This document shows positions 2,722 to 28,927 of a stretch of DNA of 32,000 nt, one piece after another. Source of the DNA: Candidatus Saccharimonadota bacterium (lineage in GTDB: Bacteria; Patescibacteriota; Saccharimonadia; Saccharimonadales; Saccharimonadaceae); contig CP006915.1 of assembly GCA_000503915.1 (NCBI GenBank), forward strand, positions 600,001 through 632,000, read 5' to 3'. The notes under the pieces were generated by a model. That model did no database searches, was not told the origin of the DNA, and saw nothing but the letters and a program-made list of their open reading frames with translations. Numbering within the stretch: position 1 is the stretch's first letter; every line of letters starts with the position of its first letter. The position numbers and the translations under genes were made by a program.

Positions 2722-3924
2722 ATGAAAATTCTTATCGCGGCCGATCTGCACTGGCCCACGATAAACGGTGTCGCGACCTTTAGCCGCAACTTGGCGAAGG
2801 GTCTAGCTGACCGCGGGCATGAAGTGATCGTGATTGCGCCGAGCCAGACCGGTGGCTCGTATGAGGAGTGGGACGGCAATTATCTTATTAAGCGTACGAT
2901 GTCGGTGCCCTTCCCTTTTTACCAAAACTTCCGCATTTCGCTGACGCCGCAGCGGGAAATCAAAAAGATTTTTCAAGAGTTTCAACCCGACCTCGTACAT
3001 CTACAAATGTGCCTGACGATTGGCAATGTCGCGCAGCGTTACGCGCTCAAATACGGTATCCCGATCGTGGCGACCAACCACGCCATTCCCGATAACTTGC
3101 TCGATAACCTGCGCTATTTAGCGCCAATGTCACGACCAATCAGCTACGTAATCACCGAGTATGGCGTACGCTTTCACGCTAAAGTTGATTACGTGACACT
3201 ACCGACCCAGTCGGCGATCGAAATGTTTGGCGAAGAGCGCATCGTGGTGCCAGTCGAGGCGGTCTCAAACGGCATCGATTTGAGCAAATTTACCCCAACA
3301 AAGCCGACGGATGCGATTTATGAGAAGTTTAAAATACCAAGAGACAAACGTATTCTCGCCTATGTCGGCCGCACCGATGCCGAAAAACACATCCCGGTTT
3401 TGGTTGAAGCCTACAAGATTGCACGCGAAAGCTTAAAGACGCCGTCGCATTTGCTAATTGTTGGCGCGGGTACTGACCTCGAGCGACTGAAAAATATCGT
3501 CTATGAAAATGACCTGCATGATCATGTTACTTTCACGGGCCGAGTCAGCGACGAAGAAATCGTTGAGCTGCACAAAGTCGGTGATGTCTTTGCGATGCCG
3601 TCGCCAGCCGAATTGCAATGTATTGCGATGCTCGAAGCCATGGCCAGCGGCAAGCCAGTCATTGCCGTTGATGCTGGCCCACTTAAAGAGCTCTGCCAGC
3701 CTGAGCGCAACGGCCTACTGTCTGAAAAGGATAACCCGGCCGATATGGCAAAAAATATCGTCACACTGCTCGACGACCCGGCGAAGCGAAAGGCCTACAG
3801 TAAAGAAAGTCTGGCGATCGCCAAGACACACGATCTACAGCACACCATCGATAAATTTGAAGAAATTTACCAGACGGTTATGAAGCTGCCAAAAACTCGT
3901 CGATTACCGCAGCCGCTTCTGTAG
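2722..3924 (+). CDS. Glycosyltransferase, GT4 family
   Basis: N-terminal MKILIAADLHWPTINGVATFSRNLAKGLADRGHEV and C-terminal ELQCIAMLEAMASGKPVIAVDAGP motifs. Divergent from the other GT4 gene. Confidence 0.85.
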   Translation: MKILIAADLHWPTINGVATFSRNLAKGLADRGHEVIVIAPSQTGGSYEEWDGNYLIKRTMSVPFPFYQNFRISLTPQREIKKIFQEFQPDLVHLQMCLTIGNVAQRYALKYGIPIVATNHAIPDNLLDNLRYLAPMSRPISYVITEYGVRFHAKVDYVTLPTQSAIEMFGEERIVVPVEAVSNGIDLSKFTPTKPTDAIYEKFKIPRDKRILAYVGRTDAEKHIPVLVEAYKIARESLKTPSHLLIVGAGTDLERLKNIVYENDLHDHVTFTGRVSDEEIVELHKVGDVFAMPSPAELQCIAMLEAMASGKPVIAVDAGPLKELCQPERNGLLSEKDNPADMAKNIVTLLDDPAKRKAYSKESLAIAKTHDLQHTIDKFEEIYQTVMKLPKTRRLPQPLL

Positions 3925-4717
3925 CTTTTTCATAATGGACGAGATGACCGACATTTTTGATGACATGCAGTCTACCGTGTTCGATAGTATTGGCAAATGC
4001 TACTTGTGAATGAAGTGATGAGATCTGGTCCTTCTCGGCAGCAAGTACGAGCGTGGGCATGGTGAGTTTTTTGGCCGCGTCCATGGTGGTGTTTGATATC
4101 GAGGTGGCAAATGCCTCCGCGACCACTTTAGGCGAGGCAAAGGTACTAAAGTGCTGGCGGTGCTGGTCGAAGATGTAGCGGCGCAAGTTTTTATCCTTAC
4201 TAATCGTCATCGAGTGGCTCATGGCATCGACAATCAGCTTGGAAGCGAGTAGCTTCTGGGCTGAACGTTCAGGCAGCTGCTTGGCAGTCCAATAATAAAA
4301 CTGCGCCAGGCGAGTTCCTATAACTTTCGAACCTTTCAGCGCTGGTGCACTGATCGGATTGATCAGAACTAATTTCTCAACCATATCAGGATATGTGGCG
4401 GCTGTATGGCTGGCGACGATACTGCCAAACGAATGACCGACGAGAAAAACCTTGTCGTGTTTTTTAACGGCCACGATGAAGTCATGCACGGCATCGATAT
4501 AGTTTTCGAGCGAATGTATATTGTCTAGCGGATCGCTGTCGCCAAAACCGGGCAGGTCCGGCACGATACAGTAATAGTTCTTCTCGAGTTCGTGCACGAT
4601 TTTTTCAAAGCCGTGATGCGTGCCACGGAAACCATGTAAAAATACAGCCATTGGATGAAGAGGATTGCCATAGTGCCAGTAACGTACTGCTGCACCCTGG
4701 ATAGTAAGAGTGTTCAT
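3878..4717 (-). CDS. Alpha/beta-fold hydrolase
   Basis: HGFRGTHHGF oxyanion region, nucleophile elbow VGHSFGS, and a late GHLVH histidine region. Confidence 0.8.
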   Translation of the reverse strand: MNTLTIQGAAVRYWHYGNPLHPMAVFLHGFRGTHHGFEKIVHELEKNYYCIVPDLPGFGDSDPLDNIHSLENYIDAVHDFIVAVKKHDKVFLVGHSFGSIVASHTAATYPDMVEKLVLINPISAPALKGSKVIGTRLAQFYYWTAKQLPERSAQKLLASKLIVDAMSHSMTISKDKNLRRYIFDQHRQHFSTFASPKVVAEAFATSISNTTMDAAKKLTMPTLVLAAEKDQISSLHSQVAFANTIEHGRLHVIKNVGHLVHYEKATEAAAVIDEFLAAS

Positions 4718-4737
4718 GAACAGGTTTAGTATAACAA

Positions 4738-4976
4738 ATCGACGGCCCCCCGTTCCAGACCATGATCGAGGTGTAAGCTCAAATCATGCGGAACACGGGG
4801 GGCGACGGTGGGCTTCGGAGGGTCTTTGCAGGATAATCGTGATCAAAGATCATCCTTTCCCTAGCCTACCGCTACGGTAGTTCTGCTCAGCCATTGGGGC
4901 CAAGGCGCTGAGCGCATGGACAGAAGCACCGCATTTGAACCGCTTTCGCGGCATCTGAGACGGGCGTCGTCAGATT
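4738..4976 (-). ncRNA. Unassigned structured RNA: standalone sRNA or riboswitch-like leader of the hydrolase gene
   Basis: Six local hairpins in ~240 nt: 4745-4803, 4831-4855, 4866-4880, 4885-4913, 4940-4951 and 4954-4974. On the minus strand, 4940-4951 reads CCGC-GAAA-GCGG (GNRA loop), and the 4831-4855 mismatch becomes G-U. Upstream is TGcTATACT. The last hairpin has a GC-rich base and is followed by TTTGTT. Confidence 0.45.
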
Positions 4977-4982
4977 GCGATT

Positions 4983-4991
4983 AGTATAGCA
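4983..4991 (-). promoter_or_regulatory. Extended -10 promoter element (TGcTATACT) for the structured RNA
   Basis: The minus strand reads tattatgTGcTATACTaatcgca. Predicted start site is near 4976. Confidence 0.45.
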
Positions 4992-5044
4992 CATAATATT
5001 TCTATAAGAAAAGTACTCAGACTATTTGCTATACTTGAACAGAT

Positions 5045-6679
5045 ATGATCGCTGATATTTCTGTGACCGAAAAATCATTCGGCTCTAAGGTCTTAATGTT
5101 CGGGGTTAAGTTTTCAGTGGATGCCAAAGAAAAAGTCGGCGTGATTGGACGTAATGGCGTCGGTAAAAGTACGCTATTTACTATCTTGACCGGTAAAGAC
5201 ACCGATTTTACTGGTGAAGTCATCTACCGGCGCGGCACCGTCGTCGCCAGTACCGAGCAGGAGCATCATGCCATCGGCGATACGACGGTACTGCAGTATG
5301 TTCTCGCCGGGCTGCCCGAATACAGCGAATTGAGCGATGTCATCGAAACCTATCCGTCCCATATGGGTGACGACATGAAGAAGATCGAAGTCTATACCCA
5401 GGCGCTGGAGCGTTTTGATCAAAAAGGCTTTTATCGGATTGAGGAAGCAATCGAGCGTGAGCTCGAGGCGTTTCAGCTGCCGGGCGTGGCACATGCGCCC
5501 TTCGCTTCCCTGTCGGGTGGTCAGAAACGATTAGTAGAAGTAGTTAAGATTATGCACGCTAAGGCAGATCTCGCCTTGCTCGACGAACCGACGAACCATA
5601 TGGACTACGTGGCGAAAAAACAGTTTATTGACTGGATGAAGGGCACGCCTGAAGCAATGCTTGTCATTACCCACGACCGCGATGTTCTCAGGCATGTTGA
5701 TCGGATTATCGAACTCAAGGATGGCGGCAGTGTTAGCTACAAAGGAAATTACGATGCATATTTAAAACAAAATGCTGCCAGTACCGGCAGCGCGATGAAT
5801 GAGTTTGAACTGATCGAAAAGCGCATCACCAACCTCAAGCAAAAAGTGATCGACTATCAGCGGCTCAAAGAAAAAGCGCGAAACCCGGCGACAATCCAGA
5901 AGTTCAAGCGCCTCGAACAAACCTCTCGAACAGAGCTTGCCGAGTTGCAAACCAAAGAAAAGCCGACCTTTTGGATTGATAAAGAGTCAGTCGATACCCT
6001 GCACTACAAGACAGCGAATCAATATGAAAAGTTCAAAGCCAAAAATATCCGCATGAACATCAAGGGCGAGCAGTCGCGTAGCAAGCATGTCCTTGTCAAG
6101 GCGGAAGCTCTCAGCTTGGGCTACAATAGTCCCCTGTTTGACGGGGTGAATATTGACCTGCGCGAAGGTGAAGCAGTCGAACTGCGCGGTCGTAATGGCA
6201 CGGGAAAGTCGACACTGATCAAGCGGCTACTCGGCGACGAATCAATCACGTTGTTTGGCGGCGAGCTTCAGCACGATCCGCAGGTGCGAATCGGTGTCTA
6301 CGAGCAGGAAGTTTCGCCGACCTATTTTACTCTTCCGCTCCACAATGCGATTGAACACCTGTATCTTGACCGTTCTCTGCCGATCAACGAGACAAAAATC
6401 CGCCAACTTATGAGCGAATATCTATTTACTGAGGGTGACGGCCAGGTACCGGTTAAGCGATTGTCGGGCGGACAGAAAGCCAGGCTACAGCTGATCGCTA
6501 TGTTGGCGAATGATCCGCAACTATTGATCCTTGACGAACCGACAAACCACCTTGATTTGCCGAGTATTGAGGAACTTGAGACGGCACTTGGTCGTTTCGG
6601 TGGTGCTATCTTGTATGTAAGTCACGATGATTATTTCCGCCGGGCAGTACCGGCGACAGTGGCGATGATCGGCGCTTAA
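5045..6679 (+). CDS. ABC-F family ATPase (two ABC domains, no transmembrane domain)
   Basis: Two Walker A sites (GRNGVGKST, GRNGTGKST), two signature motifs (LSGGQKRL, LSGGQKARL), and a charged inter-domain linker. TGcTATACT at 5027-5035 lies 9 nt upstream of the ATG. Confidence 0.9.
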   Translation: MIADISVTEKSFGSKVLMFGVKFSVDAKEKVGVIGRNGVGKSTLFTILTGKDTDFTGEVIYRRGTVVASTEQEHHAIGDTTVLQYVLAGLPEYSELSDVIETYPSHMGDDMKKIEVYTQALERFDQKGFYRIEEAIERELEAFQLPGVAHAPFASLSGGQKRLVEVVKIMHAKADLALLDEPTNHMDYVAKKQFIDWMKGTPEAMLVITHDRDVLRHVDRIIELKDGGSVSYKGNYDAYLKQNAASTGSAMNEFELIEKRITNLKQKVIDYQRLKEKARNPATIQKFKRLEQTSRTELAELQTKEKPTFWIDKESVDTLHYKTANQYEKFKAKNIRMNIKGEQSRSKHVLVKAEALSLGYNSPLFDGVNIDLREGEAVELRGRNGTGKSTLIKRLLGDESITLFGGELQHDPQVRIGVYEQEVSPTYFTLPLHNAIEHLYLDRSLPINETKIRQLMSEYLFTEGDGQVPVKRLSGGQKARLQLIAMLANDPQLLILDEPTNHLDLPSIEELETALGRFGGAILYVSHDDYFRRAVPATVAMIGA

Positions 6680-15531: not shown

Positions 15532-15652
15532 AGTGAGGAGACTCCTTTATGGTATTAAGACATGGGTTGAGTCTTCATAATATCATTTTTTTAGGCAAAA
15601 ATAAAACGCCTCACGCCGGACACGAATCATTATTCATATCGAGTGTGAGACG

Positions 15653-15666
15653 GACAGGAAATAGTG
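15653..15666. repeat. Left copy of a 14-bp perfect inverted repeat (GACAGGAAATAGTG)
   Basis: Exact reverse complement of 16247-16260. An imperfect extension, GTCTC, appears on both sides after a 1-2 nt offset. Confidence 0.8.
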
Positions 15667-15674
15667 GGTCTCAG

Positions 15675-15704
15675 GGGGCGGGATGACCGTAGCCACCCCG
15701 CCCC
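15675..15704 (-). terminator. GC-rich hairpin 6 nt downstream of the 55-aa ORF stop
   Basis: GGGGCGGG (15675-15682) pairs with CCCGCCCC (15697-15704), 8 bp. There is no U tract directly after it. Confidence 0.45.
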
Positions 15705-15710
15705 GCCGGA

Positions 15711-15878
15711 TTACGACTTGGCGCGGCCGTGAATCTTCTGCTCGCCCTTGGACCAGTGGTCGTTGTTACGAACACCTTGGTCGCCACGGTTGTCGTCGAC
15801 CATCCGCTGTTCCTCCGGTGTTCGGGCGGACGGTCGCTTCTTGGCTGCATCGCGAGCATCTTGGATGCTGTACGCCAT
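15711..15878 (-). CDS. Hypothetical 55-aa hydrophilic protein with GC-rich codon usage
   Basis: ATG at 15878 is preceded by GAAAGGGTGA. Product: MAYSIQDARDAAKKRPSARTPEEQRMVDDNRGDQGVRNNDHWSKGEQKIHGRAKS*. Third codon positions are mostly G/C, unlike neighbouring genes. Confidence 0.5.
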   Translation of the reverse strand: MAYSIQDARDAAKKRPSARTPEEQRMVDDNRGDQGVRNNDHWSKGEQKIHGRAKS

Positions 15879-15897
15879 GTGATCACCCTTTCGGGTC

Positions 15898-16157
15898 AAA
15901 ACTCACACGGACGATCCGCGTGAGGCATTGCTGATCAAGCTTGGGCTCCGACGGGCTTTGGGCTTCGGGGTTTCCCATAGCCCGTCGGAGCGGTCTAGCT
16001 GACGGACGAGCCCAGCGCGCAGCGGCAAACAGCCGAGCTCGCCCGTCAGGTCTTGGAGCGGAGCCACCGGACGCATCGCCGGTGGCTCCGCAGAGAAGCG
16101 GGTGTCGAGGGAGACGGGTGACCGATCCATTCCACGGCCATCTTTTACCCACTTCTC
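15898..16157 (-). ncRNA. Array of five consecutive long hairpins (structured RNA or leader) between the tRNA-like element and the small ORF
   Basis: Stems, in plus-strand coordinates: 16093-16103/16147-16157 (11 bp); 16058-16070/16079-16091 (13 bp, perfect); 15999-16011/16037-16049 (13 bp); 15946-15957/15979-15990 (12 bp, perfect); 15902-15910/15916-15924 (9 bp, followed by UUUU). Every non-Watson-Crick position is G-U on the minus strand and A-C on the plus strand. Confidence 0.45.
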
Positions 16158-16159
16158 GG

Positions 16160-16235
16160 TGGGACTGATAGGGTTCGAACCTACGACCTCCACCTAGTAG
16201 TGTGGGTGGTGCTCTTCCTCTTCGGCTACAGCCCC
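16160..16235 (-). tRNA. tRNA-like element, non-canonical; anticodon not assignable
   Basis: GGGGCTG-TA-GCCGAAGAGGAAGAGC-A-CCACC-CACACTACTA-GGTGG-AGGTC-GTAGG-TTCGAAC-CCTAT-CAGTCCC-A. It has a 7-bp acceptor stem, 5-bp anticodon stem, 5-bp T stem and a TTCGAAC T loop. The anticodon loop is 10 nt with no U33 context, the D stem has only 2 pairs, and no CCA is encoded. Confidence 0.6.
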
Positions 16236-21607: not shown

Positions 21608-22096
21608 ATGGAGACCAAGAGCAAGCTGCGTCAAGTGTTGAAAGCGCGCCGTCAGGCGTTAGTCTTCGAGCAGCGCCACGCGGCGAGTGTGCAGATTGAA
21701 GAGAAGCTCCACTGGCTAATCAACTGGCAATCCGAGCTCGTCGTCCATGTCTATAGTGCTCAGTTGCATCTCGGCGAAGTTGAAACGGCGCATTTTATCG
21801 ATTACCTTACGCGTTCTTGTCCGGAGGTAACACTGCATGCCGGTCGGGCAGATAAAACTGCGGCTATACCAACAGCAAACTTCGATGTTATTATTGTGCC
21901 GCTGGTCGGCTTTGACGAGGCCGGCAATCGGCTTGGAATGGGCGGCGGCTGGTACGACCGGTTTCTTGCAGTGCAGCCGCACGCATTGACGATTGGGTTA
22001 GCATTTGAATGTCAGAAAGTTCCGCTCGTTCCTATCGAAGCACACGACCAGTCGCTCGACGTCATCATAACTGAAGCAGCGATTTATCGAAACTAA
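21608..22096 (+). CDS. 5-formyltetrahydrofolate cyclo-ligase
   Basis: VIIVPLVGFDEAGNRLGMGGGWYDRFL is the family signature. Size ~160 aa. Confidence 0.85.
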   Translation: METKSKLRQVLKARRQALVFEQRHAASVQIEEKLHWLINWQSELVVHVYSAQLHLGEVETAHFIDYLTRSCPEVTLHAGRADKTAAIPTANFDVIIVPLVGFDEAGNRLGMGGGWYDRFLAVQPHALTIGLAFECQKVPLVPIEAHDQSLDVIITEAAIYRN

Positions 22097-28098: not shown

Positions 28099-28118
28099 GT
28101 ATTTAGTATACCGCTCGT

Positions 28119-28283
28119 CTAGTCGGTGCGTTTGGTCATCATCTTGAGGTTGGAGACGTACTGCAGGCAGTCGAGATTTGGAAATTGGCTCATGTACCGC
28201 ATGTGCTTCTCGACGAAACCGAGTCCATTGACGTCTTGGGCAGAATACATGGTGCGGGTATTGTACTGCTGGCTTTTTACCAT
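28119..28283 (-). CDS. Hypothetical 54-aa protein (below the ORF-track size cutoff)
   Basis: Product: MVKSQQYNTRTMYSAQDVNGLGFVEKHMRYMSQFPNLDCLQYVSNLKMMTKRTD*. TAGAAT (28297-28292) ends 8 nt before the ATG. The stop lies 20 nt upstream of the spermidine-synthase-like gene. Confidence 0.45.
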   Translation of the reverse strand: MVKSQQYNTRTMYSAQDVNGLGFVEKHMRYMSQFPNLDCLQYVSNLKMMTKRTD

Positions 28284-28442
28284 CTTTACTAATTCTACCT
28301 GTACCAGCTTTCCTTGTGGTGACTCGGAAAATGATTTTATTCGTGTGTTGATATGCTCTTGCCTCTTTACATTTTATCGAGCAAAAGTTCCTAAGCCTTG
28401 GCGGTAAGAATGATATGCTTCTCTTCTATTATATCACGAATA

Positions 28443-28471
28443 TTGTAAAAATGGCTACTTTAGGCTATAAT
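28443..28471 (+). promoter_or_regulatory. Sigma70-like promoter (TTGTAA, 17-nt spacer, TATAAT)
   Basis: -35 at 28443-28448 and -10 at 28466-28471. Back to back with a minus-strand TGaTATAAT (28436-28428). Confidence 0.55.
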
Positions 28472-28496
28472 GGTAGTTTAATACGAATGGAGAAAC

Positions 28497-28583
28497 ATGG
28501 CTAAACAGAAAAATCGTCATAGCGCCGATATCAAGCGAGCACGCAAGCGAAAATTGAAGTCAAACAAGCAAAGCAACGCGTAA
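28497..28583 (+). CDS. Hypothetical 28-aa highly basic peptide
   Basis: Product: MAKQKNRHSADIKRARKRKLKSNKQSNA*. GGAGA lies 5 nt upstream of the ATG, and a promoter lies ~25 nt upstream. Confidence 0.4.
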   Translation: MAKQKNRHSADIKRARKRKLKSNKQSNA

Positions 28584-28614
28584 ACCACTCGGTTCTCGAG
28601 CTTAAAGTAGATAC

Positions 28615-28893
28615 ATGATCAGAGAGCTCCAGTTCGCAATTGATTGGCTGGTTCGTGGCAAAGACGGGCGAGCCTATATCTTCCAGTTCCCTAACCTATC
28701 GATCATTGGCTGGTTTGCTAGTATGGTTATTGCACAGCTTACTACGGCGAATCTAAAAACAGGATTTTCCAGTATCAGCTTTGCTTTTCTTTCGATCTGG
28801 TGCTATCTGGAGATAACACAAGGCTCATCAAGGTTCAGGCGAATACTCGGTGGCGTGGTCGCGATAGTGTTGGCGTATGGGTTGTTTGGGTGA
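28615..28893 (+). CDS. Hypothetical small membrane protein (92 aa)
   Basis: Two to three hydrophobic helices (LSIIGWFASMVIAQL, ISFAFLSIWCYL, ILGGVVAIVLAYGLF). TAAAGT ends 6 nt before the ATG. Confidence 0.55.
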   Translation: MIRELQFAIDWLVRGKDGRAYIFQFPNLSIIGWFASMVIAQLTTANLKTGFSSISFAFLSIWCYLEITQGSSRFRRILGGVVAIVLAYGLFG

Positions 28894-28927
28894 GCGGTAC
28901 CTGGCCTTTGACTAACGTTTGTATATT

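Follow-up and report, generated by a model that had tools for sequence, protein, structure and literature searches.

The spacer between an alpha/beta-hydrolase gene and an ABC-F ATPase gene in the window (the whole 32-kb stretch of DNA analyzed here) carries on its minus strand, from about 4976 to 4735, an element that on balance we take to be a self-contained, strain-variable gene for a structured non-coding RNA of a new and very narrow family. The element is ~240 nt long in the window and 260–270 nt in its relatives, and it is a presence/absence polymorphism, which the preliminary description of this DNA had overlooked. In the explanation that we favor, a sigma-70-type promoter of its own would drive transcription of the RNA on the minus strand; in the window this promoter is an extended -10 box. 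The transcript would begin at a conserved AAUC, would fold into P0, a GAAA-capped P1, a three-way P2, a P3 with asymmetric loops and a GC-rich P4, and would end with P4 or shortly beyond it, right ahead of the leaderless promoter that belongs to the hydrolase. Its most likely role would be to act in trans, as a protein-binding or otherwise structural RNA, and it probably does not regulate the hydrolase in cis. The sequence comparisons show the fold and its covariation, the conservation, the strand, the matches to promoter consensus and the presence or absence among strains; transcription of the RNA, both of its ends, its action in trans and any protein partner are what we infer.

Locus, promoters and predicted transcript ends

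The spacer between the divergent hydrolase and ABC-F genes measures 327 nt (4718–5044), as had been described, with the hydrolase ATG at 4717 (minus) and the ABC-F ATG at 5045 (plus), and it is GC-richer than the usual intergenic DNA. The features of the locus are as follows.

3878–4717, minus: alpha/beta-hydrolase gene (context)
4728–4736, minus: TGTTATACT, the hydrolase's own -10 box of the leaderless type, 10 nt from the ATG and outside the RNA
4734–4744, minus: 3′ tail CGUCGAUUUGU, whose U-rich part overlaps the hydrolase promoter
4745–4803, minus: P4, GC-rich 3′ hairpin, likely transcript end or terminator (covariation and fold)
4805–4872, minus: P3, long hairpin whose asymmetric internal loops are conserved (UAGGGAA on the 5′ side, GCAAAGACCCUCCGAA on the 3′ side)
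4874–4932, minus: P2, three-way domain with outer stem GCGGU/ACCGU, an invariant UUCUG/CAGAA stem and two variable inner hairpins
4933–4938, minus: single-stranded junction UCAAAU, conserved in the alignment
4939–4952, minus: P1, hairpin GCCGC-GAAA-GCGGU with a GNRA tetraloop, the GAAA being invariant in the window, L064 and L247
4953–4976, minus: P0, hairpin AUCUGA...UCAGAU with a covarying base stem, and the predicted 5′ end (~4976, AAUC...)
4983–4991, minus: TGCTATACT, extended -10 promoter of the RNA (consensus match)
5045–6679, plus: ABC-F ATPase gene, with its own -10 box at 5027–5035 (context)

The other assignable genes of the window are housekeeping genes (glycosyltransferases, the ATP synthase operon, Dus, a UvrD-type helicase-nuclease and ribonucleotide reductase). 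The relatives of the ABC-F protein all belong to Saccharibacteria (TM7, Patescibacteria) genomes assembled from metagenomes, and the window region is identical in GCA_003537595.1 and in one Logan assembly. On the far side of the hydrolase gene, this gene and a glycosyltransferase gene overlap convergently by 47 nt (3878–3924). The slot between the glycosyltransferase and ABC-F genes is occupied in the window and in loci L001–L073 by two types of alpha/beta-hydrolase, which are 27–33% identical.

Three -10 elements had been reported here, one each for the hydrolase and ABC-F genes and a third at 4991–4983, and all were found in place. The sequence TGCTATACT of the third element also occurs at 5027–5035 on the plus strand, 9 nt from the ABC-F ATG, and TGNTATACT is present three times in the 32 kb, every time in the spacer, against 0.5 occurrences expected. 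A TAnnnT box, most often TATACT, lies 6–10 nt before the start codon in 13 of the 29 ORFs examined, both flanking genes included, while several internal operon genes of this genome (the atp genes) have GGAGG or AGGA and not the TAnnnT box. A -10 box so near the start codon is a recognized signature of leaderless transcription (PMC3160421, PMC6028130). As had been argued, the spacer is not required as a leader by either flanking gene, each having its own -10 box 9–10 nt from the ATG.

No start codon follows the box at 4991–4983, which would therefore drive a non-coding transcript from about 4976. The start proposed earlier near this position is consistent with a suitably placed promoter in the window and with an 11/12 sigma-70 match at the equivalent position in each of three relatives, L064, L247 and L113 (TTGACA-17-TATCAT or TATGAT; consensus matches). 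Furthermore, AAUC follows the -10 box by 6–7 nt in all four copies (window, L064, L247 and L113). A promoter of its own, correctly placed and conserved as judged by consensus matches, is what a standalone sRNA gene would be expected to have.

At the other end, the 59-nt P4 hairpin (4803–4745) is followed by CGTCGA and then by TTTGTT, and a terminator scan flagged 4763–4742 with the tail CGATTTGTTA. The GC-based hairpin and the TTTGTT described earlier are thus both present, but the U-run does not abut the hairpin, 6–7 nt lying between them; in L064, too, the hairpin is followed by 6–7 bases other than U. The U-run is 5–7 nt from P4 in the window, L064 and L247; in L113, P4 is followed by GGGGGUUUUCC, which escaped the scan, as this allows only loops of 3–8 nt. 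Because the U-run is 5–7 nt distant from P4, termination there may be inefficient, and read-through into the hydrolase gene may occur.

Fold and covariation of the RNA

The minus-strand RNA has a folding energy of −107 kcal/mol, compared with −82.7±4.7 for dinucleotide shuffles (z −5.16, with 0 of 200 shuffles as good), and the plus strand folds less well (z −3.98). The corresponding z values are −4.95 for L064, −4.9 for L247 and −2.0 for L113. From its predicted start, the window RNA is modeled as five serial domains, P0, P1, the three-way P2, P3 and P4. The minimum-energy fold of L064, run independently, has the identical five-domain order, and that of L247 agrees except that the P1 region is paired with the 3′ tail; the L113 fold retains P0, P1 and P4. 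The hairpin CCGC-GAAA-GCGG that had been singled out before is present at 4952–4939 on the minus strand, with its GAAA loop conserved.

The structured minus-strand RNA that had been proposed is conserved in relatives, where we found compensatory changes. In a core of 32 pairs compared between the window and L064, 100% of the cells pair, with 8 pairs altered in both partners, 2 altered compatibly in one partner only and 0 broken. L247, which was left out of the structure derivation, keeps 31 of the 32 core pairs, so that 95 of 96 base-pair cells hold over the window, L064 and L247, a covariation that rests on 3–4 sequences, below R-scape-type statistics, and on a structure partly derived from the same sequences. 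When the 3′ partners were slid by 1–3 columns as a control, pairing fell to 28–56%. In the individual domains, the base stem of P0 covaries (U-A/U-G/C-G and A-U/U-A), the closing pair of P1 changes from C-G to A-U among copies, two or three pairs in the basal 8 bp of P4 are changed on both sides among the copies, and the second helix of P4 changes from A-U to U-A between L064 and L247. The one-sided changes that still pair are all G-U on the minus strand, where ~13 of the 96 cells are G-U and 0 are A-C. Because the one-sided changes give G-U and not A-C, and because the GAAA loop is conserved, the functional strand is the hydrolase-sense (minus) strand.

The coding potential of the same strand was compared among the copies. 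The ORF that begins at AUG 4954 runs for 36 codons in the window, against 11 in L064; in L247 it has 32 codons and is frameshifted after codon 5, and L113 lacks the AUG. The alignment gaps are 1, 3, 5, 7 and 8 nt long, not all of them multiples of three. Over these three to four sequences, the element thus combines a compensated secondary structure with the lack of a conserved ORF, as expected of a standalone sRNA gene.

The invariant positions are UCAAAU in the junction, the UUCUG/CAGAA stem, and GGCUAG.GA (5′ side) and UGCAA..AC...CGAUGCC (3′ side) in the P3 loop, for which the signature GCUAG.GAR...GCAAR...GAWGC is common to all four copies. The functional core probably consists of these invariant nucleotides of the internal loops and the junction. 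At the base of P3, the two strands read GGC (or AGC)-U-AGN-GA and GA-W-GCC (or GCU) in all four copies, and 12–13 unpaired nt interrupt the non-bulged strand. This arrangement resembles the K-turn motif, in which a canonical stem is followed by a 3-nt bulge and tandem G-A/A-G pairs, and serves only as a lead. The GGAGG at 4817–4821 (CCUCC on the minus strand) lies inside P3. The CCUCC had been described as single-stranded; the motif is there, but in the predicted fold it belongs to an internal loop and is partly paired. Its suggested function as an anti-Shine-Dalgarno finds no conservation, as the corresponding sequence is ACCAUAC in L064, ACAAUCC in L247 and GCAGUGA in L113. Other candidate motifs were rejected. 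Long-range 5′–3′ pairings are seen in single copies only and are not conserved, a T-loop reading of GGUUCAAAU is lost in L247, which is without one U, and the candidate receptors for the GAAA tetraloop, CCUAAG and UAUGG, are found in L064 only.

Homologues and presence or absence among strains

The RNA had been called unassigned, and a search with all 4227 models of Rfam 15 at the gathering score returned no family for the spacer or for the RNA. A permissive search of the spacer (E ≤ 10) gave only noise, the best match being a plant miRNA (18 bits, E 0.43), and at E ≤ 1 nothing was found in L064 or L113. Over the window, the spacer, L064, L113, L001 and 14 further loci, Rfam yielded only tRNAs and noise. 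A weak match to CRISPR-DR23 at 4880–4915 (14.8 bits) was discarded, the sequence of this hairpin not being conserved. A 6S RNA beside the 5-formyl-THF cyclo-ligase gene at 21608 was likewise rejected, the spacer upstream of that gene being just 41 nt.

The search for homologues suggested earlier did yield copies, in three other Saccharibacteria lineages only: L064, L247 and the very divergent L113. In each, the element is found at the same site and points the same way, with the hydrolase -10 box directly downstream. Among 73 GTDB species-representative Saccharibacteria loci around ABC-F, which were searched by nhmmer, blastn and a covariance model of the core (R1), L064 is the sole homologue (nhmmer E 6e-14), and the covariance model added no copy beyond it. 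Further loci were reached from the two hydrolase proteins and ABC-F through to their contigs. In these, L247 is a third clear copy (116.7 bits), over which the gene caller had placed a spurious 206-codon ORF. It came to light in a six-frame comparison with gap ORFs, which gave nucleotide-level echoes only; 154 gap-ORF peptides compared with the RNAs by tblastn showed no protein-level signal, and an origin from a pseudogene was set aside. L113, together with L114 and L115, represents the very divergent copy, with a promoter region 90% identical to that of L064. It has in common with the others the AAUCCGU start, P0, the P1 hairpin, P4 and the P3 loop signature. Its score with the covariance model is −1 bit, and MAFFT misaligned its P3. 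Because alignment and model failed, the membership of L113 rests on the promoter, the start, P0, P1, P4 and the loop signature. This copy (2203–2480 in L113; also in L114 and L115) is almost unalignable in its middle, and it may be a distant allele or a chimera.

A scan of 241 million metagenome records with the best-conserved 20-mer hit 33 contigs, one of which is real and identical to L064, but the 20-mer is too strict, L247 differing from it by a 1-nt deletion. In viral contigs, a loose P3-loop pattern gave chance matches only and a stricter pattern gave none, and blastn found no match in phages and plasmids. Gaps of 450–600 nt between the hydrolase and ABC-F genes in L005, L008, L010, L014, L016, L024 and L073 contain no such RNA; these gaps hold ORFs of ~100–160 codons and, in most, a terminator that is directly followed by the hydrolase promoter.

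The element is absent from L112, L116–L125, L074, L076 and 72 of the 73 GTDB loci. L112 is the empty site closest to the window, with an ABC-F 98% identical, a hydrolase 82–85% identical and a spacer of 70 nt, which aligns with window positions 4983–5044, AGTATAGCA included. In this locus, the 9-mer homologous to the RNA promoter serves the hydrolase itself as -10 box, at 11 nt from the ATG. At the nucleotide level, L112 is 95% identical to the window on the side of ABC-F and 88% on that of the hydrolase. In the L064 group, in which L064 and L247 carry the RNA and L113 a divergent version of it, the sites of L116, L117/118 and L119–123 (ABC-F 95–98% identical to L064) are empty, as is that of the more distant L124/125 (ABC-F 91%). 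In all of these the upstream terminator leads directly into TTTCTTGCTATACT and the ATG. The indel in this group is precise, ~317 nt long, and takes in the RNA's own TTGACA-17-TATCAT promoter. L074 is also without the RNA, its hydrolase gene following an ordinary, unrelated terminator and TTTGTTATACTAAA, which is the window's proximal promoter sequence. At 2600–3030 of L074, a close relative with a hydrolase 84% identical and no ABC-F gene, the hydrolase gene comes after a glutaredoxin gene and its terminator.

The similarities among the RNAs do not follow those of the host genomes. The alignment of the RNA bodies gives a z value of 10 for L064 and the window and of 3.3 for L064 and L113, while ABC-F identity is 79% for the first pair and 97% for the second. 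Between the window and L064, the RNA is 77–80% identical over aligned positions, compared with 28% for the hydrolases and 79% for ABC-F. The element would thus be an accessory, strain-variable cassette that a few Saccharimonadales lineages acquired, lost or swapped at a single intergenic site, and the probable route would be homologous recombination via the conserved flanking genes. The window has a direct repeat of 14 nt (12/14 identical) on either side of a 255-bp unit, and this repeat could equally have mediated a deletion in L112.

Other variation was seen at this locus. L001 has at ~2800–3400 (minus) a structured, ORF-poor insert of ~590 nt (z −2.7) that ends in a canonical terminator. 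It sits at precisely the position of the window element, with a terminator upstream and the hydrolase -10 box after it. Its sequence bears no relation to that of the window RNA, and no Rfam family matches it; the site is empty in its relatives L003, L005, L008 and L073. In the L064 group, a small gene for a putative membrane protein (~50–99 aa; no match in Pfam), equipped with a canonical terminator, is found between the ABC-F and hydrolase genes (L064 1165–1464, L119 ~1235–1385, L247 897–1058); the window does not have it. In L123, ~100 nt are duplicated in tandem (~290–430), a stretch that comprises the small ORF's 3′ end and the beginning of its terminator region.

Alternative explanations and relation to known systems

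The other architecture offered in the preliminary description, a riboswitch or attenuator, would have transcription run from 4991–4983 through a sensor made of P0–P3, with P4 as a conditional terminator and read-through giving a leadered hydrolase mRNA. We consider it unlikely. All four copies do lie directly upstream of, and co-oriented with, an alpha/beta-hydrolase gene, even though the two hydrolase types are only 28–33% identical, but the hydrolase -10 box stays 7–10 nt from the ATG (11 in L112) whether the element is present or absent. The conserved P4 resembles a terminator; between it and the ATG, however, there is no Shine-Dalgarno sequence such as several internal operon genes have. 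A segment near the 5′ end of the window RNA, GACGACGCCCG, resembles the 5′ arm of P4 and could compete for the 3′ arm, but this alternative pairing is not conserved in L064, L247 and L113. The homologue of the RNA promoter 9-mer is the hydrolase promoter in L112, whereas the cassette of the L064 group carries its own promoter, upstream of the hydrolase promoter. A gene under a riboswitch would have no promoter after the element, whereas the hydrolase has one in all copies and also at the empty sites. Nor is the element conserved upstream of orthologues across relatives; it is missing from strains with near-identical hydrolase and ABC-F genes, and no riboswitch family of Rfam matches it. A riboswitch or attenuator is thus disfavored because no Shine-Dalgarno sequence follows P4, the hydrolase promoter is always retained, the closest relatives are empty and no switching helix is conserved.

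A non-autonomous mobile DNA element of the MITE or PATE kind, in which the hairpins would serve transposition and the RNA would be incidental, is about equally improbable. Clean empty sites in two genome groups, RNA similarities that do not track the hosts, and two other non-coding inserts (L113 and L001) at the identical spot would all suit such an element. The window's 12/14 repeat around the 255-bp unit would do so as well, but for the most part it is the -10 context TATACT(AA) that is common in this genome and stands before four more of the ORFs examined, and L064 and L247 have no flanking direct repeats. By eye, the ends of the window copy form an imperfect, gapped inverted repeat (AATCTGACGACGCCCG versus AATCGACGGCCCCCCG), yet a gapless repeat search of the copies of the window, L064 and L247 detected none at their termini. 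There is no second copy in the 32-kb window, nor in the 73 GTDB loci and L074–L076; the metagenome scan recovered the 20-mer in one true copy only, phages, plasmids and viral contigs had no match, and the window encodes no transposase, reverse transcriptase or integrase. Moreover, the conserved unit extends from the transcript start to the end of P4, with the promoter outside it and different between the window and the L064 group, and pairing is kept along the full length and not at the ends alone. A pure DNA transposon is less likely because conserved terminal inverted repeats and target duplications were not found, the copies were single in all that was searched and the unit starts at the transcript start. 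We regard as very unlikely a structured mRNA for a small peptide, in the style of a type I toxin-antitoxin system. The 36-codon ORF of the window lies within the most conserved block, and the element is highly structured and strain-variable, like hok-type loci, but the ORF is short in L064, frameshifted in L247 and absent from L113, it has no Shine-Dalgarno sequence and is away from the 5′ end of the transcript, the predicted peptide is not hydrophobic and there is no evident antisense partner. Finally, a neutral spacer or decayed gene remnant with chance palindromes has nothing in its favor beyond the rarity of the element, and is extremely unlikely given an RNA far better conserved between the window and L064 than are their hydrolases, varying pairs that all still pair, and gap ORFs that echoed nothing but the L247 RNA copy at the nucleotide level. 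A standalone small RNA gene, by comparison, agrees with what was found: since a promoter, a structured RNA and a 3′ hairpin stand ahead of an independently promoted hydrolase and vary among strains, the locus fits an accessory sRNA gene, and of the two architectures proposed earlier, the standalone one is in agreement.

Among the closest known systems are the orphan structured sRNAs found by comparisons of GC-rich intergenic regions (Breaker/Weinberg-type motifs, e.g., raiA, or the sRNA candidates in PMC11109978 and PMC8632094), with which the window RNA shares a long, GC-richer spacer, several compensated helices, conserved loop nucleotides, a GNRA tetraloop, its own promoter, a 3′ hairpin and the lack of an ORF. 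Unlike these, it is limited to four known copies in one Saccharibacteria order, corresponds to none of the 4227 Rfam models, and varies in presence among near-identical strains. Riboswitch and attenuator leaders also consist of a structured domain, a GC-rich hairpin and a U-rich run followed by a gene on the same strand, but the downstream gene in the window has a leaderless promoter after the hairpin and no Shine-Dalgarno sequence, the closest relatives have the gene without the element, and no conserved switching helix was found. The window RNA resembles 6S and Ms1-type RNAs in size range, in having its own promoter and in its high degree of structure; unlike them, it has five serial hairpin domains and not a single rod with a central bubble, does not match the 6S or Ms1 models of Rfam, and is not a core gene. 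Some miniature inverted-repeat elements contain promoters or give rise to them, such as the Correia elements of Neisseria. The element is like them in being small, highly structured, intergenic beside a -10 box, and present or absent between strains, but it differs in having no conserved terminal inverted repeats or target duplications, in being single-copy where searched and in its restriction to one locus.

Saccharibacteria genomes are smaller than 1 Mb, with very little non-coding DNA, and our literature search found no paper on regulatory RNAs in Saccharibacteria. A structurally selected 240-nt RNA that is dispensable among near-identical strains would be among the few accessory RNA genes known from the group. 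Some Saccharibacteria can now be transformed, and the RNA is a target for metatranscriptomics and genetics. The hydrolase/ABC-F spacer is a hot spot at which non-coding cassettes appear and vanish, which bears on how novelty arises in reduced genomes. A further reading, which we think rather unlikely, is that this site, bounded by an upstream terminator (or the divergent ABC-F promoter region) and the hydrolase -10 box, is a dedicated landing place for promoter-to-terminator RNA cassettes that Saccharibacteria strains exchange. Three or more payloads, unrelated or only barely related to each other, are seen there, namely the window/L064/L247 type, the L113 type and the structured ~590-nt insert of L001. 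If so, ultra-small episymbiont genomes would hold mobile, strain-specific RNA genes, with a possible RNA-based, strain-specific role in, for example, defense, anti-defense or host interaction, or as a new RNA-centered mobile element.

Elsewhere in the window, two other regions are poor in ORFs. The segment at 28099–28927 (~830 nt, GC 0.42–0.46) is without an ORF of ≥100 aa. The segment at 15535–16157 (minus; GC 0.56–0.60) has a folding energy of −296 kcal/mol, whereas shuffles reach −225 (z −9.5). Long, near-perfect hairpins follow one another in its 5′ half. The segment contains a small hydrophilic ORF (15711–15899) with no Pfam match, behind which lies a terminator, and it has weak Rfam "P17" matches of ~22 bits. 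It lies directly downstream of an odd tRNA at 16158–16235 (minus), which ARAGORN reports as "tRNA-???" with the anticodon at position 38 and Rfam scores at 42 bits, and whose anticodon arm may be unusual.
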